From an uncultured Alphaproteobacteria bacterium (GTDB lineage Bacteria; Pseudomonadota; Alphaproteobacteria; HIMB59), in the NCBI GenBank assembly GCA_902613185.1, contig CACMGP010000002.1, positions 35,378 to 99,377 on the forward strand: a DNA stretch of 64,000 bases. Reading direction: 5' to 3'. The position numbers and the translations under genes are program-made. Position 1 is the first letter of the stretch. Each line of letters opens with the position of its first letter. Of this stretch, positions 3,025-27,592 are shown one piece after another. The notes beneath the pieces were generated by a model. It worked only from the letters and a program-made list of their open reading frames with translations, searched no databases and was not told where the DNA came from.

Positions 3025-3040
3025 TCCAATAATTTTATTA

Positions 3041-3066: not shown

Positions 3067-3083
3067 GTTATGATATTTTTTAA

Positions 3084-7024: not shown

Positions 7025-7030
7025 TTTTAT

Positions 7031-7078: not shown

Positions 7079-7084
7079 CAAATT

Positions 7085-9714: not shown

Positions 9715-9760
9715 TTCAACTTAGATTATCAAAAAAATAAATAATTGATATAATCAAGTA

Positions 9761-10777: not shown

Positions 10778-10816
10778 TTAAGTTGAATTTAACGAATTAA
10801 TTTAGTTCTATATTAT

Positions 10817-11275
10817 ATGCTTATTAAAATTGATCCTATTCTTAGTCCAGAGGTTTTGCATACTTTAAGAGCGATGGGACATGGAGATAAATTAATTTTA
10901 TGTGACTCAAATTTTCCCGCCTATTCGATGAACTCCAGAGTTCATCGTATTGATGGTGTAAATGCTGCAAGAGCTGCCGAGGCTATACTCTCCGTATTTC
11001 CTCTAGATAGCTTTGTCGACTCTCCTATTCAAAGGATGGAAATTGATGGAAATCCAGATCAATTAAATGAAGTTCATCAAGAAATAATTGACATAACTAA
11101 GAAAATCTCAGGAGAGCATTGGAAAATTTCATCTATTGAAAGGTTTAAATTTTATGATGAAGCCAAAAAGGCATTTGCCATAATAACAACAAACGAAACA
11201 AGACCATTTGGATGCTTTATCTTAACTAAAGGAGTTGTTAAACCTGATGGTACTGTTTGGGTACTAGATCATTGA
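10817..11275 (+). CDS. RbsD/FucU-family sugar mutarotase
   Basis: LRAMGHGD, DSNFPA, ERFKFYDEAK and TNETRPFGCFILTKG motifs. Confidence 0.9.
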   Translation: MLIKIDPILSPEVLHTLRAMGHGDKLILCDSNFPAYSMNSRVHRIDGVNAARAAEAILSVFPLDSFVDSPIQRMEIDGNPDQLNEVHQEIIDITKKISGEHWKISSIERFKFYDEAKKAFAIITTNETRPFGCFILTKGVVKPDGTVWVLDH

Positions 11276-12177
11276 GTATTTGTGTATTTGGGATATTCGT
11301 TGCAGATCTGTGTTTCTTTGCAAATGATATTCCAATACCAGGTCAAACCATATTAGGAAAAAAATACATCATCGGACCAGGTGGTAAAGGGTCTAACCAA
11401 GCAATAGCAGCAGCTAGAGCAGGAGGTAATGTATCATTTATAAGTAAAGTAGGTAAAGATAGCTATGCCGATCTTGCAATCTCTTTATACAAGAGAGATA
11501 AAATAAATTATGATGGTTTGGCTATCTCTGAAAATGAATCAACTGGGGCTGCAGGTATATTGATTAATGAAAAAACTGGGCAAAATGCAATAAATGTTGT
11601 TCCAGGAGCTGCTGGTACAATTGATGAAAATTTAATCGACTCAAAGTTAAATATAATTGAGTCTTCTAATGTTTTTTTAACTCAGTTAGAGACACCAAAA
11701 GAGGTAACACTCTATGCTCTAAAAAAAGCGAAAAATTTTAATTGTACAACAATTCTAAATCCAGCACCCGCCAGTGAAATAACTAATGATAACTTTCAAT
11801 ATTTTGATTTTTTTACCCCCAATGAAACAGAAGCAAGTTTTTATTACGGTCAATCAATTAAAAATGAGGAAGACTGTAAAAAAGCAGGAAGTTTTTTTTT
11901 AGACAAAGGGATAAAGAATATAATTATTACACTTGGAGAAAATGGTTGTTATTTTAAAAACAATAAAGAGGAGTTTATAGTACCTGCTTCAAATCTAAAA
12001 AAACCAGTAGTTGACACAACAGGTGCGGGAGATGCTTTTAATGGGGCTCTAAGTGTGGCAATCTCACAAAATAAAAACTATAAAGAAGCTATTGAGTTTG
12101 CTAATCTTGTGGCAGGTGTTTCTGTTACAAGGGAGGGAGCAGCAAATTCGATGCCATACAAAGAGGAATTACTTTAA
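11272..12177 (+). CDS. rbsK: Ribokinase
   Basis: PGGKGSNQA, LTQLE, ILNPAP, TPNETE, ITLG..G and DTTGAGDAFNG motifs. Probable TTG start overlapping the upstream TGA. Confidence 0.85.
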   Translation: MSICVFGIFVADLCFFANDIPIPGQTILGKKYIIGPGGKGSNQAIAAARAGGNVSFISKVGKDSYADLAISLYKRDKINYDGLAISENESTGAAGILINEKTGQNAINVVPGAAGTIDENLIDSKLNIIESSNVFLTQLETPKEVTLYALKKAKNFNCTTILNPAPASEITNDNFQYFDFFTPNETEASFYYGQSIKNEEDCKKAGSFFLDKGIKNIIITLGENGCYFKNNKEEFIVPASNLKKPVVDTTGAGDAFNGALSVAISQNKNYKEAIEFANLVAGVSVTREGAANSMPYKEELL

Positions 12178-12179
12178 AA

Positions 12180-13205
12180 ATGCCATATATTTCAGACAAA
12201 AATCGCTATCAAAAAATGCATTATAGAAACTGTGGTGATAGTGGTTTAAAACTACCTGTCTTGTCAATAGGGTTATGGCATAACTTTGGTGGCAATGGAA
12301 TGGCTTCTGAGTCTAAAAAAATTCTTTTTGAGTCTTTTGATGCAGGAATTACTCATTTTGATTTAGCAAATAATTATGGACCACCTTATGGCAGTGCTGA
12401 GTCTAATTTTGGAAAAGTCATGAAAAGTGATCTTGGAAAATACCGTGATGAGTTAATTATATCGTCTAAAGCAGGTTACGATATGTGGGATGGACCCTAT
12501 GGTGAATGGGGTTCAAAAAAACATGTAATTGCTAGTTGCGATCAAAGTTTAAAGAGGATGAAACTGGATTATGTAGATATATTTTATTCTCATCGTTTTG
12601 ATCCAAATACACCTCTTGAGGAAACAGCTGATGCTTTAGAAAGTATCTATAAAGCTGGTAAGGCCCTGTATATTGGAGTCTCTTCTTACTCCTCCAATAA
12701 GACAAATAAAATGATTTCAATTTTAAAGAGCAAAGGAATCAAATTATTAATTCATCAACCTTCTTATTCATTAATTAATAGATGGATTGAAAAAGATTTA
12801 ACAAAAACTCTCATAAAAAAAGGGGTTGGTTGTATCGCCTTTTCTCCACTAGCCCAAGGTTTTTTATCTAATAAATATTTAAAAGGAATTCCCAAAGTTT
12901 CAAGGGTTAATGAGAATAGCTCTTTCAGCAAAGATTTAATAACGAAAAAAAATACTAAAATTATTAATGAACTCAATAAAATTGCAAAAAGAAGAAATCA
13001 ATCTCTATCCCAAATGGCTATAGCATGGGTATTAAATAATCGTGCAATAACCTCTGCTTTAATTGGGGCTAGAACAGTAAAACAGCTTAAAGAAAACTTA
13101 GCTACACTTGATAATTTAAAATTTTCAAAAATAGAAATAAAAGAAATAAATAAAGCTGCAAAAGAGGGTGATATAAATATATGGGCTCCTTCTAGTGCCC
13201 ATTGA
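12180..13205 (+). CDS. gpr: Aldo/keto reductase, L-glyceraldehyde 3-phosphate reductase (YghZ/Gpr/MgrA) type
   Basis: YRNCGDSGLKLP..SIGLWHNFG, HFDLANNYGPPYGSAE, SSKAGYDMWDGPYG and HQPSYS motifs. Confidence 0.85.
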   Translation: MPYISDKNRYQKMHYRNCGDSGLKLPVLSIGLWHNFGGNGMASESKKILFESFDAGITHFDLANNYGPPYGSAESNFGKVMKSDLGKYRDELIISSKAGYDMWDGPYGEWGSKKHVIASCDQSLKRMKLDYVDIFYSHRFDPNTPLEETADALESIYKAGKALYIGVSSYSSNKTNKMISILKSKGIKLLIHQPSYSLINRWIEKDLTKTLIKKGVGCIAFSPLAQGFLSNKYLKGIPKVSRVNENSSFSKDLITKKNTKIINELNKIAKRRNQSLSQMAIAWVLNNRAITSALIGARTVKQLKENLATLDNLKFSKIEIKEINKAAKEGDINIWAPSSAH

Positions 13206-13238
13206 TTAATTGAAATTTTTTATTATCTCACTAATAAA

Positions 13239-14246
13239 TTAAATTTTAATCCACTTTTTTTTCTTAATAGACATAAAAATTGCATCTAAGACTTTCATAT
13301 TTTTTTTTGCATCTAATAATCCATAATCTATTTTAGTTTTATAAATTAACTCATTAGAAAATTTTGTAACTTGATGTTCATATTGATCAGTCGCTGGAAA
13401 TACTTTTATTGTATTGTCTTTTCGATAGATTGATTTTCCATTGTAGATAACAACTGTAGTTGGTTTATTCGCAATTGCGTTGAAAGGATTTTCAATAACA
13501 ACTGTTTTTTTTGTGCCAAGAATTACTACTTGTTGTGAATATGTGCTTTGTGTAGCAACTGTAAAAGTTGAGAAAATATCTCCAAAATCTAACAATGCGG
13601 ATGATAAAATATCTGTTTTAAATTTTTTATCATTTTTAGAAGTTGCAATAACTCTTTTTGGTTCTTTATCTAAAAGAAATCTTGATATGACAGTCGGATA
13701 ACATCCAATGTCATAGATGGCCCCTCCACCAAAGTTTTTGATATTTCTGATATTTTTTGGATTTTTATTATTGTATGAAAACACTGTTGATATACTTGAT
13801 ATTGATCCGATCTTACCTGATTTTATATATTCTTTAACCCATCGCCATTGAGGATGATGCCTGACCATAAATGCTTCTTTAACAATAACTTTATTTTGTG
13901 AGGCAATTTTTATTAATGGGTCTATATCTTTTGATTTTAAAGATAATGGTTTCTCTAATAAGAGATTTTTTTTATTTTTACAGGCCTCAATACTTGATTT
14001 TATATGTAAGTGGTTAGGAAGAGGGTTATAAATTACATCTACATCTTTATCTTCATATAACTCTTTATAAGAACCATAACTTTTAGGTATTTTAAATTTT
14101 TTTGTTAAAGCCGTTGCTCTGGATAAATTTCTACTAGCGAGCGCTATAACCTGACTATTTTTAGATTTTTTTATTGCAGGTATTACGTGCTCCCAACCAA
14201 TTTTAGCAGTGCTTAATATGCCCCAATTAATAATTCTTTTTTTCAT
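13239..14246 (-). CDS. Gfo/Idh/MocA-family oxidoreductase
   Basis: WGILSTAKIG, YNPLPNHLH, LLEKP and GGGAIYDIGCY motifs. Confidence 0.9.
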   Translation of the reverse strand: MKKRIINWGILSTAKIGWEHVIPAIKKSKNSQVIALASRNLSRATALTKKFKIPKSYGSYKELYEDKDVDVIYNPLPNHLHIKSSIEACKNKKNLLLEKPLSLKSKDIDPLIKIASQNKVIVKEAFMVRHHPQWRWVKEYIKSGKIGSISSISTVFSYNNKNPKNIRNIKNFGGGAIYDIGCYPTVISRFLLDKEPKRVIATSKNDKKFKTDILSSALLDFGDIFSTFTVATQSTYSQQVVILGTKKTVVIENPFNAIANKPTTVVIYNGKSIYRKDNTIKVFPATDQYEHQVTKFSNELIYKTKIDYGLLDAKKNMKVLDAIFMSIKKKKWIKI

Positions 14247-14277
14247 AAAAAAAATTTAAACCTATTTGACTACAATC

Positions 14278-14312
14278 CATACATATATTTAAAAGATTTC
14301 ATACATATATTT
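14278..14312. repeat. Perfect 13-bp direct repeat CATACATATATTT with a 22-bp period in a divergent promoter region
   Basis: Copies at 14278-14290 and 14300-14312, read directly. Confidence 0.85.
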
Positions 14313-14337
14313 TATAACTTATGGTATCTATTTAAAA

Positions 14338-15261
14338 ATGAGTGATTTTAAAATAGGCATTGATTACGGTGGTACCAAAATTGAGGGTATTTTAATAGAC
14401 TCAAATGGTAAAGAAATTCTGAGAAAAAGATCTACTTATGAAAAAAATTACGAAAGTGGTTTAAATACCGTAAAATCTTTAGTTTCAGAATTTGATAAAT
14501 TTACAGATCAACAAAATTCTGTAGGGGTTTGCATACCAGGATTTTCTTCATATGAAACTGGCTTAGTAAATAATGCTAATTGTATATGGATTAATGACAA
14601 ACCATTTCATAAAGACTTAGAAAAAAGTTTAAATAGAGAAATTCGAATCATGAATGATGCTAACTGTTTTGCATTATCTGAAGCTATCGATGGTTCTGGG
14701 GCAAATTATAAATCAGTTTGGGGTGTAATTATTGGATCTGGTTTTGGCGGATCATTTGTTTATGAAAAGAAAGTCATTGAGGGCGTTAACCAAATTGCAG
14801 GAGATTGGGGACATCAACCATTACCTTATCCTACTGAGGAGGAAATTAATTCTGATGTCCAATGTAATGTAGGTAATTGCAAAAGACCCTTATGTGCTGA
14901 GCAATTTATATCAGGAATAGGTTTTACAAAATTATTTAACGAGAAATATGGCACCAGTTTAAGAACAAGAGAAATAGTTGCTTTGGAAGCAAATGGTGAT
15001 GAAAGAGCAAAAAAAGAATTTGAATTATATGAAGATCGTTTTGCCAGATTAATATCTGTAATGATAGGTATCGTTGACCCTGATGTAATAGTTTTTGGTG
15101 GAGGTATGTCAAACGTTGGTAGACTTTATGACAATATACCTAAATTACTTCCTAAATACACATTTAGTGATAAGATAAGAAATAAGATCTTACGGAATAC
15201 TCACGGTGACTCCAGCGGTGTTAGAGGGGCAGCGTGGTTGTGGGACTCAGATAAATTTTAA
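14338..15261 (+). CDS. ROK-family sugar kinase (Mak-like fructokinase)
   Basis: GIDYGGTKIE, NDANCFALSEA.DG, IIGSGFGG, AGDWGHQPLP and HGDSSGVRGAAWL motifs. Confidence 0.88.
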   Translation: MSDFKIGIDYGGTKIEGILIDSNGKEILRKRSTYEKNYESGLNTVKSLVSEFDKFTDQQNSVGVCIPGFSSYETGLVNNANCIWINDKPFHKDLEKSLNREIRIMNDANCFALSEAIDGSGANYKSVWGVIIGSGFGGSFVYEKKVIEGVNQIAGDWGHQPLPYPTEEEINSDVQCNVGNCKRPLCAEQFISGIGFTKLFNEKYGTSLRTREIVALEANGDERAKKEFELYEDRFARLISVMIGIVDPDVIVFGGGMSNVGRLYDNIPKLLPKYTFSDKIRNKILRNTHGDSSGVRGAAWLWDSDKF

Positions 15262-16344
15262 ATGAAAAAAATTGGAATTCTTACTAGTGGTGGAGACTGT
15301 GGTGGTTTAAACGCTGCAGTTAGATCGATATTTTTCAGAGCTAAAAATACATATCAGATGGAAGTTATGGGTATTCGTGATGGCACTGTTGGTTTAATGC
15401 AAAGACCAGTAGCTTATGTTCCATTAGACTATCAAACTTTTAGCGGTTCTCTTCTAAGACAAGGTGGGACATTTTTGGGAACAACAAGTAAAGGTAATCC
15501 TTTTAAATTTCCCATGCCAGATGGTAAATACAAAGATAGATCCCAAGACATTATTGATGGTTACAAAGAATTAGGTCTTGATGGGCTAATTGTTATAGGC
15601 GGAGATGGAAGCATGTCGATTTTAACTGAAATTGCAAAAAGAGGTGACTTAAATATTGTAGCCATACCTAAAACAATTGACAATGATGTGGGAGCCACTG
15701 AGAGCTCCATAGGGTTTAATACAGCTGTAAATGTTGCTACCCAAGCACTAGATAACTTACAAACAACTGCTGCAAGTCATCAAAGAACGATGATTTTAGA
15801 AGTAATGGGGAGAGACGCAGGACACATAGCTATTAACGCTGGCATTGCAGGTGGAGCAGATGTAATCCTAATTCCTGAATTAAATTACTCTATCAAAGGA
15901 ATTGTCAATAAACTCACTGAAATGAAAAATAGAGGAATAGTTCATTCGCTGATTGTAGTAGCAGAGGCAGTAAAAACAGAAAGCGGAAAAAGTTATACTG
16001 TTGAATACGCTGATGGTCAAAAAAGATTAGGCGGTATAGGTAATTATCTTTCAGAGGAAATAATGAAAAGTACTGATATAGAGTGTAGGGTTACTTCTTT
16101 GGGGCATGTTCAACGAGGTGCGCCCCCTACTCCACGTGATAGAATTTTAGCAAGTGCTTTTGGAGTTTATGCTGTTGATTTAATAGCAAAAGGAAAATAT
16201 GGAAGAATGGTTGCATGGAGAGATAGAAAAGTTGTTGATGTTCCAATTAGTGAAGGAATTTCTACTTATAAAGTTGTAGATAGATCCGATCCTCTAATTG
16301 AAACTGCTTTAGCACTTGGGGTATATGTTGGTGATATAAAGTGA
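15262..16344 (+). CDS. pfkA: 6-phosphofructokinase (group III; GGDG/PKTIDND pattern indicates ATP dependence)
   Basis: TSGGDCGGLN, GGTFLGT, IGGDGS, PKTIDND, EVMGRDAG and LGHVQRG motifs. Confidence 0.92.
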   Translation: MKKIGILTSGGDCGGLNAAVRSIFFRAKNTYQMEVMGIRDGTVGLMQRPVAYVPLDYQTFSGSLLRQGGTFLGTTSKGNPFKFPMPDGKYKDRSQDIIDGYKELGLDGLIVIGGDGSMSILTEIAKRGDLNIVAIPKTIDNDVGATESSIGFNTAVNVATQALDNLQTTAASHQRTMILEVMGRDAGHIAINAGIAGGADVILIPELNYSIKGIVNKLTEMKNRGIVHSLIVVAEAVKTESGKSYTVEYADGQKRLGGIGNYLSEEIMKSTDIECRVTSLGHVQRGAPPTPRDRILASAFGVYAVDLIAKGKYGRMVAWRDRKVVDVPISEGISTYKVVDRSDPLIETALALGVYVGDIK

Positions 16345-17175
16345 ATGTTTATACCAATAGAAAAAATTTCAAATCTTCAAGAATTTAAAAAAGATATTTT
16401 TAGTGGAAAAGTTTTTGTATTTCAAAAATCAAAAACTTCAAATGATTTAATAACCCAAATTAAAAATAAAATACAAAATATTTATGATGGTGAAATAGAA
16501 GAAATACACCATTTAAAAAATTCTGAGGATATAAGTAAGGATATTGTATCAAAATTAAAAAACCATGAAGATTTCAGAAAACTATTTTCAAACTTTTTAT
16601 ATGAAATTGGATATAATAAAGGTGAAACTTTTTGGGATCGATTTGTTGTAAGAGTAGCACCAGCAGAAAATAACTTACCTTACAGAGAAGCATCTAGAAT
16701 AAATATTCATCGTGATACTTGGGGCACAAATTTGTATCAACAAATTAATTGGTGGGCACCAGTAAGCAATGTAGAGGAAAAAAATACTATGATTTTTTAT
16801 CCAGATTATTTTGATGTTCCAGTAAAAAATACTACTTCGACTTGGGACTTAAACATTTATTTAGCCAATAGAAAAAAAGGCGATTTTTCTTATCCCTCTG
16901 CTCCACAATTAAAAGAGGACTTGCCCAGCAATATTAAGAAAATACCAGTAACTATAAAACCAGGAGAAATTTTATGTTTTTCAGGTGCTCACTTACATAG
17001 CTCATCAAAAGAAAAGTCTGAAAATACAAGGATAAGCTTTGAAATTAGAACTATTTGTGAAAACGACTTAAATAGTTCAGCTCAAGCCCCAAATGTAGAC
17101 TGCGATTTGCAATGGAAGTTCCCTAAAATTTTTAAAAAAATTAATGACAATTCGCCGCTGAAAATAACTAGCTGA
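16345..17175 (+). CDS. Hypothetical protein, probable Fe(II)/2-oxoglutarate-type (DSBH) oxygenase
   Basis: HRDTW (HxD), NWWAPV, GEILCFSGAHLHSS (distal His) and RISFEIR (RxS). Confidence 0.6.
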   Translation: MFIPIEKISNLQEFKKDIFSGKVFVFQKSKTSNDLITQIKNKIQNIYDGEIEEIHHLKNSEDISKDIVSKLKNHEDFRKLFSNFLYEIGYNKGETFWDRFVVRVAPAENNLPYREASRINIHRDTWGTNLYQQINWWAPVSNVEEKNTMIFYPDYFDVPVKNTTSTWDLNIYLANRKKGDFSYPSAPQLKEDLPSNIKKIPVTIKPGEILCFSGAHLHSSSKEKSENTRISFEIRTICENDLNSSAQAPNVDCDLQWKFPKIFKKINDNSPLKITS

Positions 17176-17203: not shown

Positions 17204-18454
17204 GTGAAGAAAAAATATTCAATATTTAGCCTTGCTAAAAATGCACTATCTGGCCATAAAGACTGGCCAAAAATGTGGAGAAGCCCCGAACCCAGAGAGT
17301 TTTATGATGTCATAATAATTGGTGGTGGGGGTCATGGACTAGGAACTGCATATTACTTAGCAAAAGAACATGGATTAACAAATATTGCCGTAATAGAAAA
17401 AGGTTGGCTTGGTGGAGGTAACACAGGTAGAAACACCACTATCATTAGATCAAATTATTTATGGGATGATAGTGCTCATTTGTACGAACACTCTTTAAAG
17501 TTATGGGAAAACCTATCAAGCGAATTAAATTACAATGTAATGTTTAGTCAAAGAGGGGTTATGAATTTAGCCCATAACGAACATGATATAAAAGAAATTA
17601 AAAGAAGAGTTAGTGCAAATAATTTAAATGGTATTGATTCATTTTGGTTATCTAAAGAAGAAATTCAAAAAAAGGTTCCTATAATGAATACTGACAATCT
17701 TCGATATCCAGTGCTAGGTGCATCTTACCAACCTCGCGGTGGTGTAGCACGACATGATGCAATAGCATGGGGTTTTGCAATGCGCGCTGATGAGATGGGA
17801 GTTGATATAATTCAAAATTGTGAGGCACATCAAATAAGGACTAAAAATGGAACAATAGAAGGTGTCGAAACTTCCAAGGGTTTTTTAAGGGCAAATAAAA
17901 TTGGAGTTGTTGCTTCAGGTCATACTGGTGTTTTAGCAGAGAGTGCGGGTATCAGGTTACCTTTACAAAGTAAGCCACTTCAGGCACTTGTTTCTGAACC
18001 AATCAAACCTATTATTGATACAGTGGTAATGTCCTCTGCAGTTCATGCTTATGTCAGTCAATCTGATAAAGGTGAATTAGTTATTGGAGCAGGAACCGAC
18101 AGTTATAATTCTTTTACTCAAAGAGGTGGTTTTGACATTATTGAAGATACTATTCGAGCTATGGTCGAGCTTTATCCAGTATTTGGCAAAATGAAAATGC
18201 TTCGTCAATGGGGTGGTATTGTTGACATCTGCCCAGATGCTAGTCCTATTATTAGTAAATGTGACATTGAGGGTTTATTTTTTAATTGTGGCTGGGGCAC
18301 AGGTGGTTTTAAAGCTACACCTGGAAGTGCAAATGTTTTCGCACATACCATTGCAAAAAATGAACCTCATCAAATTAATAGTGCGTTTAATCTTGATAGA
18401 TTTGCAAGTGGAAGATTAGTAGACGAACACGGTGCTGCAGCCGTAGCACATTAA
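17204..18454 (+). CDS. soxB: Sarcosine oxidase beta subunit (N-methylglutamate dehydrogenase MgdA not excluded)
   Basis: [34 protein letters not shown] and [10 protein letters not shown] motifs; GTG start. Confidence 0.9.
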
Positions 18455-18459: not shown

Positions 18460-18810
18460 ATGCTCATAATTAATTGCCCTTATTGCGGCCCGAGAGATCA
18501 ATCGGAATTTTCAAATGGAGGAGAAGCACATGTAAAAAGACCCGATGGATCAAAAGAAATTGGTGATCGTGAGTGGGGAGAATACGTCTTTATAAGAGCA
18601 AATCCAAAAGGTTTGTTTTATGAGCGCTGGGTACACACACATGGTTGTCGCAAATGGTTTAATTGTGTAAGAGATACATCTACTGATGAAATTTTGGTGA
18701 CCTACAAGCTCGATGAAAAAAAACCAAATTTAAATAATTTTAAAAGTGTTGTTAAAACGCCCTCTGGTGAACCAGAAGTTGGGTCGGGTAATTTTACGGT
18801 TGAAAAATGA
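18460..18810 (+). CDS. soxD: Sarcosine oxidase delta subunit
   Basis: CPYCGPR..EF..GGEAH and ERWVHTHGCRKWFN Zn ligands. Confidence 0.92.
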   Translation: MLIINCPYCGPRDQSEFSNGGEAHVKRPDGSKEIGDREWGEYVFIRANPKGLFYERWVHTHGCRKWFNCVRDTSTDEILVTYKLDEKKPNLNNFKSVVKTPSGEPEVGSGNFTVEK

Positions 18811-21785
18811 AATCTATAAATTTAAAAGAAAATCAATTTATTCAGTTTCATCAAAAAATTAGCTTCAAATTCGATGGGGTCAAATATTTTGGCTACAAAG
18901 GCGATACTATAGCCTCAGCTCTATTAAGAAATAATATTAGCATTGTAGGAAGAAGTTTTAAGTACCATAGGCCAAGAGGAATTTATACTTGTGGTATAGA
19001 AGAACCAAATGCTCTAGTCCAAATAATTAGTGAATATTCCGAACCAAACACAAGAGCAACTATAAAAAAAATTTATGAAGGAATGGAAATTGAAAGTCAA
19101 AACAGATGGCCTTCTCTTGAAAACGATTTTGGAAGTATCAATAACTTATTTTCTCCAATTTTTACTGCTGGTTTTTACTATAAAACGTTCATGGGGCCGC
19201 ATAAGAAATTTTGGAAAAATTTGTATGAACCACTTATTAGAAGAGCCGCTGGATTAGGTAAACCTCCCAAAGATTTCAAAGGCATAAGCAATCATATCCA
19301 TCACAATGTCGATATTACAATTATAGGAGGAGGATTAAATGGACTCCTCGCAGCTAAATCTTTCATCAACTCAAATTATGATGTGTTGTTAATTGACTTT
19401 GAGGAACAACTTGGTGGCATTATAAATAATTCAAACAAAATATCATCAATTGATAACAAAGAGCCTAAAGATTGGTTAAAAGAAACTATACAAGAAATAG
19501 AAGACTCTAAGAATATAAAGATTTTAAAAAACACACTTGTTACTACTTATAATTACATTAATCATCTTATAGCCATTGAAGATAGATTTGTTGGCTCTAA
19601 ACCGATAGAAGGAAAAGTTAATAGCACTTTACATAAGATACGCACAGGTCACACAATATTATGTAATGGACACATTGAGAGATTTTTATCTTTTCAAAAT
19701 AACGATCTCCCAGGCATAATGCTAAGCTCTTCCTTTGAAAAATATATGTGCCGATATGGACTAGCACCTTCTAAAGAACCTGTTATTTTCAGTAATAATT
19801 CGAATTCAAACAGCTTAGTTTATAGTCTTATAAAAGCTGGTTTAAAACCAAAAGCATATATCGACTCACGATCCGGGGAGGAAATTGAGCCAAATTTGTT
19901 TGACTTGATAAGAAAAAATGATGTTCCTCTTTACACAAATTCACAAATAAAAGGAGCATTTGGAAACAAAAAAATTGAAAAAATTCTTGTTGAGGATAGT
20001 TCTGGTGCCTTGAATGAAATTAAATGTGACTGCTTATGTTTGTCAGGTGGAATAAATCCAGATGTTCACTTGTTTACTCAATCAAAAGGTTTATTAGATT
20101 GGGATGAGAAAGATTTAACTTACAAACCATCAAAACCTTTTCAACCTACCATAACTCTTGGTTCTGCTTCAGGACAATTTAATTTTGATAATTTAAATTC
20201 TGATATAAATGAAAAATTGAAAACTTTTAAAGTCAAAAAATTAGACGTTAAACTCGAATTAAATACAAATGCTAAGTATAACATTGAAAAATTATGGGAG
20301 GTCTCTCCGCAAAAGAAATCATTATGGGCTAAATCATTTATTGACTTACAAAATGATGTAACAACTAAAGATATCCGTCAAGCAATAACAGAGGGTTTTG
20401 ATAGAATTGAACATTTAAAAAGATATACAACAAATAGTATGGGAACCGATCAAGGTAAAATTAGTAGTATTAACGCACTGGGAATAGTTTCTGATCTTCT
20501 TGATAAAAAAGTAAATGAAGTTGGCACAACTATTTATCGACCACCCTATGCTCCTTTAAGTTTTTCTGCAATAGCTGGCAGAAATTGCTATGAGTTTTAT
20601 GACCCAGAGAGAAAATCACCAATACATAATTGGCACTTAAAAAATGGTGCAATTTTTGAGGATGTCGGGCAATGGAAAAGGCCATGGTATTTTCAAATTA
20701 ATAAAGATGAGTCGATGCATGATGCTGTTCAACGAGAGAGCAAAAATGTAAGAGAAAACGCAGGTATTTTAGATGGGAGCACATTAGGAAAAATTGAGAT
20801 CAAAGGTGAGGATGCGTTAGAATTTATGAATTTAATTTACACAAACAGTTTTACTAAGATGAAACAAGGTTCTGCAAGATATGCTCTTATGTTGGGGGAA
20901 GATGGGATGGTAAAAGATGACGGGATAATTTGTAAAATTTCTGATCAGCATTTTATTGCCACTACAACTACTGGAGGTGCTGCTACTGTTTTAGGTTGCA
21001 TGGAGGAATATGCTCAAACCGAGTGGCCAAATTTAAAAGTTTTTATGAACTCGATTACAGAACAATATGCAACTTTCAACATTAGTGGACCAAAAACAAG
21101 AGAAATTATGAAGAAAGCCTTTCCAAATATCAATTTTAGTAATGAGGAGTTTCCATTTATGACTTTCCAATTTCATGAATTTAATGGTGTTCCAATACGA
21201 ATTCTAAGAGCAAGCTTTACCGGGGAGCTAGGTTACGAAATATATATTCCATCAAATAGTGCCCCTAAAATTTGGGATAATATTCAAAGTTTTGGAAAAG
21301 AATTTGGTCTTGCTCCCTACGGCACGGAGGCAATGCATCTTTTAAGGGCAGAAAAAGGTTACATTATTGTTGGCCAAGACACAGATGGTTCTATAACACC
21401 AATAGATTTGGGACTTAGCTGGATGATTGGTAAATCAAAAAAAGATTTTTTAGGCAAAAGATCACTTACTCGGTCTGATACTATAAGAGAGGATAGGAAA
21501 CAACTTGTTGGTATCATTCCCTCGAATAAAGCCGATAAACTAGAGGAAGGACAACATATCATTCTTGATAAGGAAATTAAGTCTCCTGTCCCGATGCTTG
21601 GTCATATTACATCTTGTTATTATAGTTCTACTTTAGGTCATGATTTTGCATTAGCTGTTATCAAAAATGGCCACTCTATGATTGGAACAAAAGCTTACGC
21701 TTCCACATCAAGTATGAGTACAACTGGTGTGGATATAGTAAAACCCGTTTTTTATGATGCGGATAATAAAAGGTTAGTTTCATGA
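18807..21785 (+). CDS. soxA: Sarcosine oxidase alpha subunit
   Basis: GDTIASAL, RSFKYHRPRG, DLQNDVT, EHLKRYTT..MGTDQGK, GQWKRPWY and SFTGELGYE motifs. Confidence 0.92.
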   Translation: MKSINLKENQFIQFHQKISFKFDGVKYFGYKGDTIASALLRNNISIVGRSFKYHRPRGIYTCGIEEPNALVQIISEYSEPNTRATIKKIYEGMEIESQNRWPSLENDFGSINNLFSPIFTAGFYYKTFMGPHKKFWKNLYEPLIRRAAGLGKPPKDFKGISNHIHHNVDITIIGGGLNGLLAAKSFINSNYDVLLIDFEEQLGGIINNSNKISSIDNKEPKDWLKETIQEIEDSKNIKILKNTLVTTYNYINHLIAIEDRFVGSKPIEGKVNSTLHKIRTGHTILCNGHIERFLSFQNNDLPGIMLSSSFEKYMCRYGLAPSKEPVIFSNNSNSNSLVYSLIKAGLKPKAYIDSRSGEEIEPNLFDLIRKNDVPLYTNSQIKGAFGNKKIEKILVEDSSGALNEIKCDCLCLSGGINPDVHLFTQSKGLLDWDEKDLTYKPSKPFQPTITLGSASGQFNFDNLNSDINEKLKTFKVKKLDVKLELNTNAKYNIEKLWEVSPQKKSLWAKSFIDLQNDVTTKDIRQAITEGFDRIEHLKRYTTNSMGTDQGKISSINALGIVSDLLDKKVNEVGTTIYRPPYAPLSFSAIAGRNCYEFYDPERKSPIHNWHLKNGAIFEDVGQWKRPWYFQINKDESMHDAVQRESKNVRENAGILDGSTLGKIEIKGEDALEFMNLIYTNSFTKMKQGSARYALMLGEDGMVKDDGIICKISDQHFIATTTTGGAATVLGCMEEYAQTEWPNLKVFMNSITEQYATFNISGPKTREIMKKAFPNINFSNEEFPFMTFQFHEFNGVPIRILRASFTGELGYEIYIPSNSAPKIWDNIQSFGKEFGLAPYGTEAMHLLRAEKGYIIVGQDTDGSITPIDLGLSWMIGKSKKDFLGKRSLTRSDTIREDRKQLVGIIPSNKADKLEEGQHIILDKEIKSPVPMLGHITSCYYSSTLGHDFALAVIKNGHSMIGTKAYASTSSMSTTGVDIVKPVFYDADNKRLVS

Positions 21786-22303
21786 CTGAAGTTATCCGAT
21801 CTGATGGTATTGAAATTAAAAAAAAAGTTATTCAACAAATTCTGTTAAGAGGATCTGGTGACTCAAAATTTAATAATCACATAAATAAATCTTTAAAACT
21901 TTTGCCGCCATTAGATAATTTAAGGATAATTTCAAATGATAATTATACTTTAGCGAAAATGTCTTTTGATCAATGGAATTTGATATTTGAAAAAGAAATT
22001 GAAAATAAAAAACTCAACAAAATCTTAGCTGACTTAAATAAATCACCCTTAATATTGGCAACAAATATTTCTGACTCACAAGTTTTTTTTGAAATTCAGG
22101 GTAAAAATAGTTTTGATATATTAAATAAATTAACGCATTTTGACTTTAGAGAAAAATCCTTTAAAAAATTCACTGCTGCACAAACATTATTAGCTAGAGT
22201 AGACTGTTCTATTTTTAATCTTAATCTTAAATTGTTACTAAGTTGTAATCGATCATTTGCTGACTATCTTGAGGATCGTCTTATTGACGCGGTTAACTAT
22301 TAG
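21782..22303 (+). CDS. soxG: Sarcosine oxidase gamma subunit
   Basis: Position after soxA; C-terminal AQTLLARVDC..RSFADYL pattern. Confidence 0.8.
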   Translation: MTEVIRSDGIEIKKKVIQQILLRGSGDSKFNNHINKSLKLLPPLDNLRIISNDNYTLAKMSFDQWNLIFEKEIENKKLNKILADLNKSPLILATNISDSQVFFEIQGKNSFDILNKLTHFDFREKSFKKFTAAQTLLARVDCSIFNLNLKLLLSCNRSFADYLEDRLIDAVNY

Positions 22304-22361: not shown

Positions 22362-24836
22362 ATGGCAAGAAAATCAAGAATAATAATCGTTGGTAGTGGT
22401 ATTGTTGGAGCGAGCACCGCCTATCATTTAGCTCTATTGGGTTGGAAAGATATGGTTATACTCGATCAGGGGCCATTGTTTGAAACTGGAGGCTCTACAA
22501 GCCACGCACCAGGAGGTGTGTTTCAAACTAATCCTTCACGAATGATGTGTAAATTTGCACAGTACACAGTTGACTTACTTAGATCCTTATCATTTGAGGG
22601 AAAACCTTGTTTTCATACTGTTGGAGGAATTGAAGTATCGAAGACAAAAGAAAGACATCAAGACCTTTATCGAAAACTAGGTATAGCACACAGTTATGGA
22701 TTAACTGATGCAAAAATAATCACTCCAGATGAAGTTTTAAAAATGAGCCCCTATATTGATCCAGAAAAAATTCATGGGGGATATTATGTTCCAACTGATG
22801 GTTTAGCAGCACCTGTAAGAGCAGTTAGAGCAATGGCAAAATATGTGACTGATTTAAAAGCAGGGGAATTCTTTGGTGATACAGCAGTTAATGGTTTTAA
22901 AATTCAGAATAATCAAATTCGTGGTGTACAAACATCTAAGGGTTATTATGAAGCTGATATTGTACTTGTCTCAACTGGTATCTGGGCTCCAAAAATGGGA
23001 AGACTCGCGAATATATCATTACCTCTAGTTCCCTGCGAACATCAAATGGTGTGGTTAGAACCGTTTGAAGAATTGAAAGAATTTAAAGCTGATCACAAAG
23101 AAGCTTTGGTTGAACATGCATTGATGCGTCACCAAGATTACAGTCTCTATTTCAGACAATGGAATGATACTTATGTTATTGGAAATTATCGACATGAACC
23201 AAGAATTTTAGAGTCAGAAGAATTAAAGAAACCTGAAGATGCAGAAGAAATGCCCTCTTTGGTGGACTTTAGACCTGATGATTTTGAAGGTGCACATAAA
23301 GAGTCGAATTGGTTGTTCCCAAGATTTTCAGAAAAAAAACTTACAAAAAAAATTAATGGAATTTTTTCATTTACAACAGATGGTAACCCTTTGATGGGCG
23401 AGACAAGTGTAAAAGGTTTGTGGACCGCTAATGCTGTATGGATAACACATGCGGGTGGTGTTGGAAAAGCTATGGCAGAGTGGATAGTTAATGGTGAGCC
23501 TGAACTTGATGTTCGTCAAGGAGATATCAATCGTTTTCATCAACATCATCATGTCAGGAAATATCTAAGGTCAAGAGGTAAGCAGAATTATAAAGAGGTA
23601 TATGATATTATTCACCCACTTCAACAAATGGAGCAGCCAAGACCACTAAGAAGAAGTCCATTTTATGCAAGGTTAGAGGGACAAAAAGCATATTTCTTTG
23701 AGACTATGGGCTGGGAAAGACCTCAATGGTATGAGTCAAATGCTGAATTAATGAAAGGTAAAAACTTTCCAAATAGGACAGGCTGGGCTGCAAAATATTG
23801 GTCACCAATTCAAGCAGCTGAACATCTTGTAACAAGACAAACGGGTGCCCTGTTTGATATTACAGGATTTGTGAAAATTGAAGTAAGTGGAAAAGGTGCT
23901 CTAAAATTATTACAAAAAGTTTGCACAAATAATATTGATGTTGCCGTAGGTAAAGTTGTTTATAGCGTAATTTCTAATATGTATGGTGGTATAAAGAGTG
24001 ATCTTACTATTAGTAGACTTGAGGAAAATAAATTTTGGGTCTTGGCAGGAGCTGGGAATGGAATGATTGATATTAGTTGGCTTCGAGCAAATGCTCCTGA
24101 TGACGGAAGTGTTCAGATCATAGATTGGACATCGGCTTTTGCAGGTATCGGCTTATGGGGGCCAAATTCAAGATCTGTTCTTGAAAAACTGTGTGATGAT
24201 GATGATGTATCTAACGAAGGTTTTCCATTTTTCCATATTAAAAAGATTTCAATCAGTAACATCCCTTGTGTTGCTGTAAGAATATCTTATATAGGTGAAT
24301 TAGGTTGGGAAATATATACACCTACGGAGTATGGACTATCACTATGGGATGAACTTCGAGAAACCTCAAGAGAGTTCAACATGATTTGCTCAGGTGCTGG
24401 TGCTTTTGAGTCACTCAGATTGGAGAAAGGCTATAGATCACTGGGTACAGATATTCATACTAATTACAATCCTTATGAGTCAGGCTTAGGCTTTACGGTA
24501 AAGCTTAAAAAAGATGATGAGTTTATCGGTAAGAATGCACTTCAAAAAATAAAAGAAAAACCAATTGAAAAGAGACTTACTTGTATGATTATTGATGACC
24601 CTGAAGGAATGGCCTTGGGCACAGAACCGATTTATTCAAATGGTAAAGCTGTAGGGTACGTTACAAGTACAAATTATGGCTATTTTGTTGATAAACACAT
24701 TGTTTATGGATATTTACCAACAGAATTGTCAGAAAAAGGAAATAAGTTAGAGGTCGAGTACTTTGGCAAAAGGTATCCATTAACAGTTACAGAGGAACCT
24801 TTGCTCGACCCAGAAAATCGTAGATTAAAGTCTTAA
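22362..24836 (+). CDS. FAD-dependent oxidoreductase-GcvT fusion, dimethylglycine oxidase/dehydrogenase-like
   Basis: IVGSGIVG, GGSTSHAPG.VFQTNPS, NGIFSFT.DG, GWERP, SYIGELGWE and SLRLEKGYR motifs. Confidence 0.88.
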   Translation: MARKSRIIIVGSGIVGASTAYHLALLGWKDMVILDQGPLFETGGSTSHAPGGVFQTNPSRMMCKFAQYTVDLLRSLSFEGKPCFHTVGGIEVSKTKERHQDLYRKLGIAHSYGLTDAKIITPDEVLKMSPYIDPEKIHGGYYVPTDGLAAPVRAVRAMAKYVTDLKAGEFFGDTAVNGFKIQNNQIRGVQTSKGYYEADIVLVSTGIWAPKMGRLANISLPLVPCEHQMVWLEPFEELKEFKADHKEALVEHALMRHQDYSLYFRQWNDTYVIGNYRHEPRILESEELKKPEDAEEMPSLVDFRPDDFEGAHKESNWLFPRFSEKKLTKKINGIFSFTTDGNPLMGETSVKGLWTANAVWITHAGGVGKAMAEWIVNGEPELDVRQGDINRFHQHHHVRKYLRSRGKQNYKEVYDIIHPLQQMEQPRPLRRSPFYARLEGQKAYFFETMGWERPQWYESNAELMKGKNFPNRTGWAAKYWSPIQAAEHLVTRQTGALFDITGFVKIEVSGKGALKLLQKVCTNNIDVAVGKVVYSVISNMYGGIKSDLTISRLEENKFWVLAGAGNGMIDISWLRANAPDDGSVQIIDWTSAFAGIGLWGPNSRSVLEKLCDDDDVSNEGFPFFHIKKISISNIPCVAVRISYIGELGWEIYTPTEYGLSLWDELRETSREFNMICSGAGAFESLRLEKGYRSLGTDIHTNYNPYESGLGFTVKLKKDDEFIGKNALQKIKEKPIEKRLTCMIIDDPEGMALGTEPIYSNGKAVGYVTSTNYGYFVDKHIVYGYLPTELSEKGNKLEVEYFGKRYPLTVTEEPLLDPENRRLKS

Positions 24837-24854
24837 CTATTATATTTTAAAAAT

Positions 24855-25736
24855 ATGATCAAAGAAAATATTGTTTCTTTAGTTGATGGCTTTACCGTAG
24901 AGCTTAACCCAAAAGTAAGACACAAACTAAAGTCTATCCCTCTAGATAAAAAAAATAATGTCTACATAACATATCTACCTGATGCTACGGAAAACGATAT
25001 TTTAGAAACTGTTGATTTTGTATCTAAACAAGAATTAACTCCTATTACTCATTTGCCTGCAAGGACAATGAAAGATTTAGATCATGTTTCAGACTTCCTA
25101 AAAGAACTTAGAAATAGAACAGATAGCAAAAAAATTCTTGTTATTGGTGGTGGAGGTAATCAAAATGGATCAATATCATCTTCGCTGGAAATACTAGAGT
25201 CTGGTTTATTAAAGGATAATGATTTTGAAGAGATAGGAATAGCTGGACACCCAGAAGGTTCACCTGATATTGATCAAAATACTGTCAACGAATTTTTAGA
25301 TAAAAAATATGAGTTATCAAAAAATAAAAATTTAAGTTTAGAACTTGTTACTCAATTTTTTTTTAATGCCGAACCATTTATTGAATGGTGCAAATTTTTA
25401 GATAATTCAAATATAAAATTACCCGTCAGAGTAGGCTTTCCAGGCCCAGCATCTTTTAAGACACTTCTTAATTTTGGAATAATGAGTGGTGTTGGAAATT
25501 CATTAAGTTTTCTTAAAAAGAACTCATCTAAAGTAACTGACCTTCTAACAAAAACTTCAAACGATGAAATGTTTATTGAGTTAGCAAATTTCTCTAAAGA
25601 ACAAAGTTCATTTAAAAATTTTCACTGCTTTCCTTTTGGTGGCTTCGAAAAGACCTGTCATTGGTTAAATGCTCTTCAAAATGGTGATTTTATCATGGAA
25701 AATGACAAAATAGTCCTCCACAACAAAATCTTTTAA
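24855..25736 (+). CDS. metF: Short-type methylenetetrahydrofolate reductase (MetF family)
   Basis: VYITYLP, PITHLPAR, GIAGHPEG, VTQFFF, GFPGPA and HCFPFGG motifs. Confidence 0.8.
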   Translation: MIKENIVSLVDGFTVELNPKVRHKLKSIPLDKKNNVYITYLPDATENDILETVDFVSKQELTPITHLPARTMKDLDHVSDFLKELRNRTDSKKILVIGGGGNQNGSISSSLEILESGLLKDNDFEEIGIAGHPEGSPDIDQNTVNEFLDKKYELSKNKNLSLELVTQFFFNAEPFIEWCKFLDNSNIKLPVRVGFPGPASFKTLLNFGIMSGVGNSLSFLKKNSSKVTDLLTKTSNDEMFIELANFSKEQSSFKNFHCFPFGGFEKTCHWLNALQNGDFIMENDKIVLHNKIF

Positions 25737-25751
25737 GTTCAAATTTTTCGA

Positions 25752-25812
25752 TTGCATAGACCTTAAAAAGAAATTAATTTTCAAAAATTGCTACTGCATT
25801 TTTTATAGGAGG
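25752..25812 (+). promoter_or_regulatory. Sigma70-type promoter and SD for the aminomethyltransferase-like gene
   Basis: TTGCAT (25752-25757), 17-nt spacer, TAATTT (25775-25780); SD AGGAGG at 25807-25812. Confidence 0.6.
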
Positions 25813-25816
25813 ATAT

Positions 25817-27121
25817 ATGAAGCTAAAGCAACCAAGTTCAGTGGACCAATCTGACAGAAAAGTCCCATTTAATTTAAGGCAATCAGGACCAACACCTCAA
25901 CAAATGCTGATTTCTACCAGAGTTAGAAAAAACCCATATTGGCATTTATCAGTTGAGGCAGGATGTTGGAGATGCACTGTGTACAATAGAATGTATCATC
26001 CTAGAGGTTATGTAAAACCTGAGGATGGTGGTGCAATGGTCGAATATGATGCATTAGTAAATCACGTAACTATGTGGAATGTTGCAGTAGAAAGACAAAT
26101 TCGTGTAAAAGGACCTGATGCCTTAAAATTTACAAATTTCGTTATCACAAGAGATGCAACAAGAATTGATGTAATGAAAGGAAAATATGTAATCCTTTGT
26201 AATGACAAAGGAGGAGTATTAAATGATCCAATATTACTCAGAGTCGCAGAAGATGAGTTTTGGTTTTCACTTTCTGACTCTGATATTATGTTTTTTCTTC
26301 AAGGGGTAAATCACGATAAAAAGTTTAATGTAGAAATTGATGAAATAGATGTATCTCCTGTTCAAATTCAAGGACCAAAGTCAATCGATCTTATGGCAGA
26401 TTTAGTTGGAGATGCTGTTAGAGACATTCCTTACTATGGATTAATGGCAGCAAAAGTTGGAGGGAGAGATTGTATTATTTCCCAAACAGGTTTTACTGGG
26501 GAAAAGGGATATGAAATCTACCTCAAAGATGCAACTTTGTATGCAGATGATATGTGGAATGCTGTTTTAGAGGCTGGAAAGAAACACAATCTAAAAGTAA
26601 TTGCACCTGCACACCATAGAAGAATAGCTGCAGGAATTTTATCTTGGGGTCAAGATCTTGATGCCGAAACTTATCCATTTCAATGTAACCTTGGCTATCA
26701 GGTTCCAAGAAAAAAACAAGCTGACTATATTGGTAAAGAAGCTCTAGAGGCAATGAGAACAAAAATTGAGGCAGGTGAGAAACCATATAGCAACCAACTA
26801 GTTGGATTTAGATTAGGTGGTAAACCCATTGATGAATATGCTCCAGACTTTTGGCTTATATCTGAAGATGGATCTACACCAATAGGGTATCTAACATCAC
26901 CTTGGTATTCCCCTGAATTGGGAACAAATATCGCAATGGGATATGTACCTTATGAGAAAAAAGACTTAGGTAATAAATTTAAATTTCATCTACCTGATGA
27001 GTATTGTGAAACTCCAGGGTCACCTGTAGATGGTGAAATAGTTGAAATACCTTTTAGGCCATCAGTAAATCCTAATGCGCGAGAAATTGCAAAGGATGAT
27101 GGAAGAGATACGGCATATTAA
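25817..27121 (+). CDS. GcvT/DmdA/LigM-family THF-dependent (amino)methyltransferase, substrate unknown
   Basis: RVRKNPY, WNVAVERQI, GGVLNDPILLR, SLSDSD, QIQGPKS, QTGFTGEKGYE and RRIAAGILSWG motifs. Confidence 0.85.
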   Translation: MKLKQPSSVDQSDRKVPFNLRQSGPTPQQMLISTRVRKNPYWHLSVEAGCWRCTVYNRMYHPRGYVKPEDGGAMVEYDALVNHVTMWNVAVERQIRVKGPDALKFTNFVITRDATRIDVMKGKYVILCNDKGGVLNDPILLRVAEDEFWFSLSDSDIMFFLQGVNHDKKFNVEIDEIDVSPVQIQGPKSIDLMADLVGDAVRDIPYYGLMAAKVGGRDCIISQTGFTGEKGYEIYLKDATLYADDMWNAVLEAGKKHNLKVIAPAHHRRIAAGILSWGQDLDAETYPFQCNLGYQVPRKKQADYIGKEALEAMRTKIEAGEKPYSNQLVGFRLGGKPIDEYAPDFWLISEDGSTPIGYLTSPWYSPELGTNIAMGYVPYEKKDLGNKFKFHLPDEYCETPGSPVDGEIVEIPFRPSVNPNAREIAKDDGRDTAY

Positions 27122-27131: not shown

Positions 27132-27166
27132 AAAAAGCCTAGATAAATAAGTATTTAGGCTTTTTT
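27132..27166 (+). terminator. Rho-independent (potentially bidirectional) terminator
   Basis: AAAAAGCCTAGATA / TATTTAGGCTTTTT stem followed by a T-run, 10 nt after the stop codon. Confidence 0.85.
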
Positions 27167-27217: not shown

Positions 27218-27592
27218 ATGAATATTCCAAAAGTTATAAATTCCCAAAAACTTTACGATTTGTATGAACAAATTTTTGACTATTTTAGTTTAACTGTTTA
27301 TGACTTGGAGTCTAAAATTGATACTAATTTAAATATCTCAAATATTAAAAATAAACTTGAAACTTTTTCTGATAAGCATTTTAAAAATGCACTTAATGAT
27401 TTCAATCAAGAAGTAAAAAAAATAAAAAATCACATACCTGATGATTTTTTAAAAATCGAGCAAATCTCCCATGAGATTAAACAAAGTTATAATAAGTTTT
27501 TAGAACAGAATTTTTTTGATTATGAGTCATTAAATATATTAAAGAACAAATTAAAGAGTAATATTGATAATATTCATAAAATTTACTCTTAA
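27218..27592 (+). CDS. Hypothetical helical protein (weak HPt-domain-like motif)
   Basis: 124-aa ORF with its own promoter; DDFLKIEQISHEIKQS segment. Confidence 0.65.
   Translation: MNIPKVINSQKLYDLYEQIFDYFSLTVYDLESKIDTNLNISNIKNKLETFSDKHFKNALNDFNQEVKKIKNHIPDDFLKIEQISHEIKQSYNKFLEQNFFDYESLNILKNKLKSNIDNIHKIYS

Follow-up and report, generated by a model that had tools for sequence, protein, structure and literature searches.

The 64,000-nucleotide stretch of DNA analysed here (GenBank assembly GCA_902613185.1, contig CACMGP010000002.1, forward-strand positions 35,378 to 99,377; hereafter the window) has a G+C content of ~30% and belongs to a marine alphaproteobacterium of the HIMB59/AEGEAN-169 type, a group abundant in the ocean. 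It carries on its + strand a one-carbon cluster that runs from soxBDAG through a dimethylglycine oxidase-type flavoprotein and a methylenetetrahydrofolate reductase (MTHFR, or MetF) to a 434-aa DmdA-related protein of the GcvT fold, which we call AMTx (25817-27121). This gene order was proposed in an earlier reading of the sequence (the original prediction), and both coordinates and family matches bear it out. AMTx belongs to none of the families GcvT, DmdA and LigM and stands in a separate clade next to DmdA; together with the adjacent type 4 MTHFR it makes up a real and well-delimited module of a DmdA-like demethylase and an MTHFR. On the combined analysis, we favor with a probability of roughly 0.55 the reading that AMTx is a tetrahydrofolate (THF)-dependent methyltransferase with glycine betaine as its physiological donor, a candidate glycine betaine:THF methyltransferase. 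That AMTx moves a methyl group from an onium donor of some kind to give methyl-THF (CH3-THF) is highly probable. For the broader proposition, that AMTx founds the first GcvT-fold family to move an N-methyl of the quaternary ammonium compound glycine betaine straight to THF and so constitutes a fourth betaine route, we consider the chances to be even.

AMTx and the DmdA superclade

AMTx carries GCV_T and GCV_T_C domains, and its best match among the NCBIfam models is the one for DmdA (NF009133), at 270.4 bits against a cut-off of 410. It also falls short of the GcvT models TIGR00528 (149 against 235.85 bits) and NF001567 (159 against 300 bits), and of the LigM and DesA models NF047885 and NF047633 (46 and 55 bits, with cut-offs of 580 and 800). 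Identity to DmdA is only 28-29% (PDB 3tfh, E = 9e-48). Maximum-likelihood trees unite the AMTx sequences in a single clade (SH-aLRT 99-100), nested in a wider group of uncharacterised relatives, and the DmdA of Pelagibacter ubique (3tfh) falls with the genome's own DmdA in a separate clade (support 98). A DmdA superclade (SH-aLRT 98) holds both AMTx and DmdA; outside it lie DmmD-like proteins, Tdm, the folate domains of dimethylglycine dehydrogenase (DMGDH), three GcvT structures and, in the first tree, the folate domain of SoxA. The three GcvT sequences group in a separate clade in that first tree.

The AlphaFold (AF2) model of AMTx, with a predicted local distance difference test score (pLDDT) of 85.6, has the three-domain fold of the GcvT type. 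Its top Foldseek match is DmdA 3tfh (TM 0.93, root-mean-square deviation 1.9 Å), with GcvT at 0.90 and LigM at ~0.6. The folate-site residues are those of DmdA: N136-D137-P138, E233 and Y235 (3tfh E204 and Y206) are invariant, and W87, E92-R93-Q94, R112, W149 and S151 are, like N136-D137-P138, common to DmdA and not to GcvT. Where AMTx has N-D-P, the three GcvT sequences aligned have D-D-L; the AMTx motif TGFTGEKGYEI resembles TGYTGEDGFE of GcvT.

AMTx departs from residues that are invariant in the DmdA clade (Q56T, P97I, R194Q, E259Q and L37H), and the Trp found at position 197 of 3tfh and in most DmdA sequences is Phe (W197F). We take this W197 to be the residue that has been numbered W171 elsewhere. 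The AMTx residues at the DmdA sites Q56, P97, R194, W197 and E259, which may help to form the DMSP pocket (T85, I126, Q223, F226 and Q289), are themselves invariant in the AMTx clade, so that the DmdA residues looked for at these sites are absent from it. Among them only the Trp position has, on that assumption, a published link to the binding of dimethylsulfoniopropionate (DMSP), as W171 (preprint 10.1101/766360). Across 25 AMTx orthologues, two of them haloarchaeal, 152 of 434 positions are invariant. The pattern of residues would fit DmdA chemistry acting on a different, universal substrate.

We rejected a true GcvT because of the scores under both cut-offs and the separate clade; a true DmdA because of the score, the separate clade and the substitutions at DmdA-invariant positions; and LigM or DesA because of the scores and the low structural similarity to LigM. 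The original prediction had treated the last gene of the cluster as an orphan methyltransferase, and models and trees uphold this assignment: there is no clustering with true GcvT or with true DmdA.

With DmdA (EC 2.1.1.269; P. ubique, 3TFH; NF009133) AMTx thus shares the three-domain fold, the superclade, N-D-P and E92-R93-Q94, and the same redox-neutral transfer of a methyl group to THF is predicted for it. The two differ in their surroundings, since the neighbours of AMTx are betaine, dimethylglycine and sarcosine genes rather than dmdBCD, of which none was found in the AMTx neighbourhoods examined. They differ also in distribution, AMTx being found in Actinomycetota and haloarchaea. Unlike DmdA, furthermore, AMTx is extended at its N terminus by ~30 residues, which are invariant, and at its C terminus by a tail of ~35. 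In the N-terminal part, the stretch V9-G24 does not vary between HIMB59 and haloarchaea and has no counterpart in DmdA or GcvT. Residues 1-33 (25817-25915) are disordered in the AlphaFold model, with pLDDT below 50, and the V9-G24 stretch may be a lid or an oligomer or partner interface.

A type 4 MTHFR and a conserved neighbourhood

The gene directly upstream of AMTx (24855-25736, + strand, 293 aa) is matched by the Pfam MTHFR family weakly, at 20.8 bits. Against S6MTHFR of Sphingobium lignivorans SYK-6 (PDB 7xg9) it aligns over residues 10-271 with E = 8.5e-41. Equivalents of L48/P49, F215 and P268/F269 are retained in this alignment, which includes the segments TYLPD, NFGIM and CFPFGG; C219 of S6MTHFR is replaced by Ser and R78 by Thr, with the adjacent R77 retained. 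S6MTHFR oxidises 5-CH3-THF to methylene-THF (CH2-THF) and scarcely reacts with NADH (Yu et al. 2025, PMC11868366), and it founds a "type 4" MTHFR family that co-occurs with THF-dependent demethylases (PMC11868366). By its kinship the product of 24855-25736 is a type 4 MTHFR, predicted to oxidise 5-CH3-THF to 5,10-CH2-THF. The original prediction had likewise assigned the oxidation of CH3-THF to the adjacent MetF, and the kinship with 7xg9 speaks for this; its description of that MetF as short does not hold, 293 aa being an ordinary bacterial length. No other MTHFR-like gene was detected in the genome, which is 92% complete, and this one must therefore also serve the methyl-THF that comes from DmdA.

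The proposed pairing of demethylase and reductase has a precedent in the LigM-MetF-LigH system of SYK-6 (PMC11868366), which joins a GcvT-fold demethylase that makes CH3-THF to an oxidiser of the S6MTHFR type. The order AMTx-MetF-FTHFS in Roseospira goensis (locus L050) mirrors ligM-metF-ligH. The systems differ in that AMTx is not LigM or DesA and is expected to draw its methyl group from an N-methyl osmolyte rather than an aryl methyl ether. DmdA-like proteins are not among the partners of type 4 MTHFR listed by Yu et al. (2025, PMC11868366).

A pair of metF and a DmdA-like gene is nevertheless not new, having been known from Pelagibacter since 2011. In P. ubique HTCC1062, metF (SAR11_1264) adjoins a DmdA-like aminomethyltransferase, SAR11_1265, whose substrate was left unassigned; from the metF adjacency and the kinship with dmdA it was speculated to demethylate methylmercaptopropionate (MMPA), and metF was assumed to be oxidative (Sun et al. 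2011, PMC3160333). The mRNAs of SAR11_1264 and SAR11_1265 fall together in stationary phase (PMC5069961). The adjacency of metF and a DmdA-like gene is the same as in the window, and the host is again a streamlined marine alphaproteobacterium, with SAR11_1265 as a possible orthologue of AMTx. The HIMB59 pair differs from it in being joined to a cluster of soxBDAG and dimethylglycine oxidase. Literature searches for follow-up work on SAR11_1265 and for proteomic evidence found only Sun 2011 and Smith 2016.

AMTx is not confined to the HIMB59 lineage. A contig scan, which returned matches of at least 70% identity, places proteins 71-80% identical to AMTx in Rhodospirillales (Algihabitans, Roseospira, Rhodospira), in the gammaproteobacterial Spiribacter and Woeseiaceae, and in Actinomycetota (Arthrobacter sp. 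H14, Nostocoides japonicum); orthologues are present in soil and wastewater actinobacteria. Haloarchaeal megaplasmids, among them those of Haloarcula, Halobellus and Salinigranum, encode proteins 60-64% identical to AMTx.

We counted the genes within 8 kb of AMTx in 27 non-redundant loci outside HIMB59, and in 23 of them at least one is DMGDH-like, type 4 MetF, soxBDA or BHMT-type. A DMGDH-type flavoprotein is present in 15 loci, soxBDA in 7 and a BHMT-type gene in 5; type 4 MetF, found near AMTx in the window, recurs in 11 others. A Pfam census of the neighbours (117 proteins from 22 of these loci), in which type 4 MetF is invisible at the threshold used, is led by the GCV_T/DAO/FAO_M architecture of the DMGDH type (10-14), followed by the AraC plus DJ-1 architecture of GbdR (5) and FTHFS (4), with BCCT, BHMT-type, electron transfer flavoprotein (ETF) and GBBH-like proteins at 2 each. 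GMC oxidoreductase, SHMT and FTHFS each stand beside AMTx in single loci. In one metagenome-assembled genome (MAG) a GMC oxidoreductase of the choline dehydrogenase family overlaps the start of AMTx; in locus L036 a GbdR-like gene adjoins it; and in Arthrobacter sp. H14 the order is glyA ... AMTx-fhs ... dimethylglycine oxidase. Plasmid pNG700 of Haloarcula marismortui carries DHFR-AMTx with a convergent MTHFR, two FAD oxidoreductases of 850 aa, a Rieske oxygenase and threonine ammonia-lyase (ilvA), and the Halobellus locus has glyA (SHMT) in addition. GBBH-like/TauD genes, a gene of the ornithine cyclodeaminase family and an Opp-type ABC transporter occur in some loci. There is thus a strong association, across two domains of life, of AMTx with the pathway from betaine through dimethylglycine and sarcosine to glycine and with folate-linked one-carbon oxidation.

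Several details of these loci deserve mention in their own right. On pNG700 (locus L081) the Rieske/ring-hydroxylating oxygenase alpha subunit (20028-21167 of that locus) lies between two DMGDH-like genes, and it could be a GbcA-like oxygenase of betaine or another quaternary amine that works beside AMTx. In both haloarchaeal loci MTHFR is followed by conserved hypothetical proteins of ~400-430 aa and an AstE/AspA-family gene. One alphaproteobacterial MAG has two AMTx copies (L042 and L047), each 74% identical to the window protein, the first by a GMC oxidoreductase and a GBBH-like dioxygenase and the second by a DMGDH; these paralogues may have different donors.

Glycine betaine as the donor, and the alternatives

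A betaine-type N-methyl donor is our best guess because AMTx sits, across phyla, with dimethylglycine and sarcosine genes and with regulators and transporters of the betaine type. In the mechanism that we propose, betaine would be imported by OpuA, and N5 of THF, held in the DmdA-type site of AMTx, would attack one of the betaine methyls to yield dimethylglycine and 5-CH3-THF. Type 4 MetF (24855-25736) would convert CH3-THF to 5,10-methylene-THF, passing the electrons to some acceptor that is not NAD+. Release of the other two methyls as CH2-THF, which leaves glycine, would fall to the dimethylglycine oxidase-type enzyme and SoxBDAG. Read in this way, the cluster would cover the whole way from betaine to glycine, with a first step that needs no homocysteine, cobalamin or O2, and it would run parallel to the methionine-making route through BHMT.

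Recognised routes of betaine demethylation were, as of 2025, GbcAB, MtgBCD and BHMT only (Mausz et al. 2025, PMC12478193). BHMT, MtgBCD and GbcAB/BmoAB have the same substrate and product as we propose for AMTx, namely betaine and dimethylglycine, and MtgBCD with MetF2 likewise passes the methyl to THF for oxidation by a dedicated MetF. Unlike BHMT, MtgBCD and GbcAB, AMTx is a single GcvT-fold polypeptide that would work without a corrinoid protein, a zinc-thiolate acceptor or an oxygenase. Our literature search found no description of a folate-dependent betaine demethylase of the GcvT fold.

The original prediction had AMTx supply a missing first step. It was right that gcvH, gcvP, BHMT and dmdBCD are absent from the window: no gcvP-, gcvH- or dmdBCD-like gene is among the window ORFs (open reading frames) scanned, and no PF02574 (BHMT-type) gene lies on the window's contig. 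The step is nonetheless not missing from the genome. On contig C1, at 234473-235510, there is a 345-aa BHMT of the human and SAR11 type (PDB 1lt7, human BHMT, E = 7e-45), with a second dimethylglycine dehydrogenase, ETF/ETF-QO and an OpuA-type betaine ABC transporter as neighbours. Because of this BHMT, AMTx is not needed to explain betaine use. Of the earlier inference the kind of enzyme and the likely betaine-type donor keep support, the donor from the neighbourhoods, and the premise of a missing step does not. The prediction had itself allowed that a BHMT elsewhere might fully explain betaine use; the gene does exist, and its presence alone does not amount to a full explanation.

Strain HIMB59 agrees with this picture: of the known genes for betaine demethylation it is listed with SAR11-type bhmt alone (Mausz et al. 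2025, PMC12478193, Dataset S2), and it is reported to be without MetH, MetE, MtgBCDE, MetF2 and GbcAB (PMC12478193). SAR11-like bacteria have been proposed to use BHMT alone (Mausz et al. 2025, PNAS, PMC12478193). BHMT uses one homocysteine per betaine, however, and therefore cannot alone support bulk betaine oxidation. Because of this stoichiometry, and because the lineage is without MetH and MetE, we infer that a folate route via MetF, FolD and Fhs is a reasonable catabolic complement to BHMT. AMTx would then be a second betaine route beside BHMT, independent of homocysteine, cobalamin and O2.

The BHMT gene has its own AGGAGG Shine-Dalgarno sequence. It stands in a methylated-amine island (C1:204000-236000) that also includes mgs/mgd-like and sox-like genes, an FMO-type Tmm, a DmmD-like GcvT paralogue, Tdm and a choline-kinase-like gene. 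Next to tmm, tdm and mgs-like genes, C1 has a second sox-like operon, which more probably encodes an N-methylglutamate dehydrogenase.

Several points weigh against glycine betaine as the donor. With BHMT beside a dimethylglycine dehydrogenase and an OpuA transporter already in the genome, betaine could be used without AMTx. As a methyl donor, quaternary ammonium is inferior to the sulfonium of DMSP, and the known betaine methyltransferases use a Co(I) or zinc-thiolate nucleophile. Three or four loci are not informative: L057 and L075 have no informative neighbours, L071 has only a weak MTHFR-like match, and L042 has only the GMC oxidoreductase and the GBBH-like gene. Five loci have a BHMT-type neighbour and no DMGDH, an arrangement that fits a sulfonium donor such as S-methylmethionine too. 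On Haloarcula pNG700 the Rieske oxygenase in the island could be the betaine demethylase there. Finally, the genome's only MTHFR would also serve DmdA, so that the adjacency of MetF and AMTx is not exclusive evidence.

Some of these points are shared by the strongest competing explanation, in which AMTx is a THF methyltransferase for another onium or methylated osmolyte and the dimethylglycine and sarcosine genes around it form a general methyl-oxidation island. Proline betaine, beta-alanine betaine, choline, carnitine, gamma-butyrobetaine, S-methylmethionine and dimethylsulfonioacetate are the candidates, and even taken jointly we consider them possible rather than likely. The fold, the DmdA-type residues and the type 4 MTHFR partner would suit any methyl donor. 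The BHMT-type neighbours in five loci can be read in the same direction, mammalian BHMT2 being an enzyme that uses S-methylmethionine, and so can the GBBH-like/TauD, ornithine cyclodeaminase-family and Opp-type genes of some loci. However, dimethylglycine dehydrogenase or oxidase is by far the commonest neighbour, often with soxBDA(G), and acts on the products of betaine demethylation; the GbdR-like regulators and BCCT transporters indicate betaine or dimethylglycine; and the tight conservation of AMTx, with its 152 invariant residues, argues for one universal substrate.

It is improbable that AMTx is a divergent DmdA serving as a second DMSP demethylase. Its best NCBIfam and PDB matches are indeed to DmdA, in sequence and in structure, and its host is marine. 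But the 270 bits that it reaches against the cut-off of 410 contrast with the 484 of the genome's true DmdA, the clades are separate, and Q56T, P97I, R194Q, E259Q and W197F alter the DmdA pattern. Moreover, the occurrence of orthologues in haloarchaea and in actinobacteria from soil and wastewater, and neighbourhoods that, as far as examined, are free of dmdBCD, do not suit a DMSP demethylase.

Very improbable, too, is a GcvT-like transfer of a methylene (aminomethyl) group with CH2-THF as product, in which AMTx would act as an accessory of the oxidases or with an H-protein. The GcvT fold and domains and the TGFTGEKGYEI motif are compatible with such a role, and none of the genome's nine GCV_T-domain proteins was recognised as a canonical GcvT. 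These include the true DmdA (C1:509335, 484.2 bits), Tdm (1161 bits) and two DmmD-like paralogues; none of the nine reaches a GcvT cut-off in this 92%-complete genome, and a canonical glycine-cleavage T protein may be absent from it. Against a methylene transferase stand the scores under both GcvT cut-offs, N-D-P in place of D-D-L, the lack of gcvH and gcvP nearby, and the fact that dimethylglycine oxidase and SoxA carry folate domains of their own; a partner that oxidises CH3-THF, furthermore, would have no AMTx product to act on. We infer that a methyl rather than a methylene group is moved. A further DmmD-like paralogue of 398 aa is found on the small contig C10.

Barely credible, and rejected on distribution and neighbourhoods, is the demethylation of the thioether MMPA to mercaptopropionate, which would remove the second methyl of DMSP as was proposed for SAR11_1265: methyl transfer from a thioether to THF opposes the strongly favoured direction of the methionine synthase-type reaction, and neither a distribution beyond marine DMSP users nor betaine-pathway neighbourhoods fit.

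Glycine betaine, the donor that we prefer, is among the most abundant osmolytes and labile sources of nitrogen and carbon in the sea and in saline soils, and the first demethylation step sets the fate of its methyl, whether it goes into methionine or is burnt for energy. If our reading is correct, a folate-dependent demethylase of a single polypeptide, with its methyl-THF oxidiser, would fill a gap for B12-poor, streamlined plankton. The route would be active in HIMB59-type (possibly SAR11) bacterioplankton, halophilic bacteria, actinobacteria and haloarchaea, and could carry much of the betaine methyl oxidation in the oligotrophic ocean that is now credited to BHMT alone. Metagenomic reads of dmdA-like genes and of "gcvT" would have to be reinterpreted, because glycine cleavage T protein is the annotation that members of the AMTx family routinely receive. 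Quaternary amines would join sulfonium compounds and aryl ethers as donors in the known chemistry of the GcvT fold.

Expression signals and the remaining genes of the window

The 80-nt spacer between metF and AMTx (25737-25816, + strand) contains a GATTGCA box and an AGGAGG Shine-Dalgarno sequence. The latter is perfect and lies 5 nt 5' of the AMTx ATG; in a crude gene set of the genome AGGAGG occurs within 20 nt upstream of 23 of 1108 ORFs (2%), AMTx and bhmt included. An intrinsic terminator follows the gene (27132-27165, + strand; a 14-bp stem and then a T-run). The ribosome-binding site and terminator that had been predicted for the last gene are therefore present, and its canonical promoter was not found: a sigma-70 scan of the spacer gave no site that matched 9 or more of 12 positions, and promoter-like sites in the AT-rich region occur at chance (38 found against 45.5 expected from shuffled sequence). 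The GATTGCA box is invariant across HIMB59-type relatives in which AMTx is only ~91% identical. A second, ATTGCTA-like element is seen in the same spacer of HIMB59-type genomes. These elements could serve as an operator or as a promoter that departs from the consensus, and separate regulation of AMTx is plausible. An Rfam search of the cluster and of the metF-AMTx spacer found no riboswitch or leader RNA.

All four subunit genes of a heterotetrameric sarcosine oxidase are present in operon order on the + strand. These are soxB (beta; 17204-18454; TIGR01373, 674 bits against a cut-off of 529), soxD (delta; 18460-18810; TIGR01374, 121 bits against 116.5, with a PF04267 match), soxA (alpha; 18807-21785; TIGR01372, 1120.6 bits, slightly below the cut-off of 1164) and a divergent soxG (gamma; 21782-22303; PF04268, 32.4 bits against 21; TIGR01375, 41.6 bits, under the cut-off). 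The domains of SoxA (Fer2_4, SO_alpha_A3, GCV_T and GCV_T_C) provide its own folate-binding GcvT part. The flavoprotein gene that follows (22362-24836, + strand, 824 aa) has the architecture DAO, FAO_M, GCV_T and GCV_T_C and matches the N,N-dimethylglycine oxidase of Arthrobacter (PDB 1pj5) over residues 1-823 with E = 7.8e-220. The full-length match and the architecture make it a flavoprotein of the Arthrobacter dimethylglycine oxidase type, in keeping with the earlier description as dimethylglycine oxidase-like; it may act as an oxidase or as a dehydrogenase.

Upstream of soxB lies orf276 (16345-17175, + strand), a possible divergent PhyH/2OG-Fe(II) oxygenase-like protein of uncertain membership in the module. 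Its Pfam matches are weak (2OG-FeII_Oxy_5, E = 0.026; PhyH, E = 0.041) and give no firm family, and a PDB search gave no relative. The gene follows immediately on pfkA, and 28 nt separate its end from soxB. In three distant loci (L038, L043 and L049) homologues are found at a distance of 1-6 kb from AMTx, so that orf276 may be an optional member of the module. Directly upstream on the same strand, window positions 1-16344 hold a large cluster of sugar-kinase and glycolysis genes (PfkB, aldo-keto reductase, GFO/IDH/MocA, ROK kinase, PfkA).

Downstream of the one-carbon cluster are RmuC, glycosyltransferases, lepA and pheST. The nearest named relatives of the window's proteins are from "alpha proteobacterium HIMB59" MAGs and from many open-ocean single-cell genomes. 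Right after the AMTx terminator, an ORF of 124 aa (27218-27592) without a family match is kept together with RmuC in HIMB59-type loci, at ~51% identity in L022.

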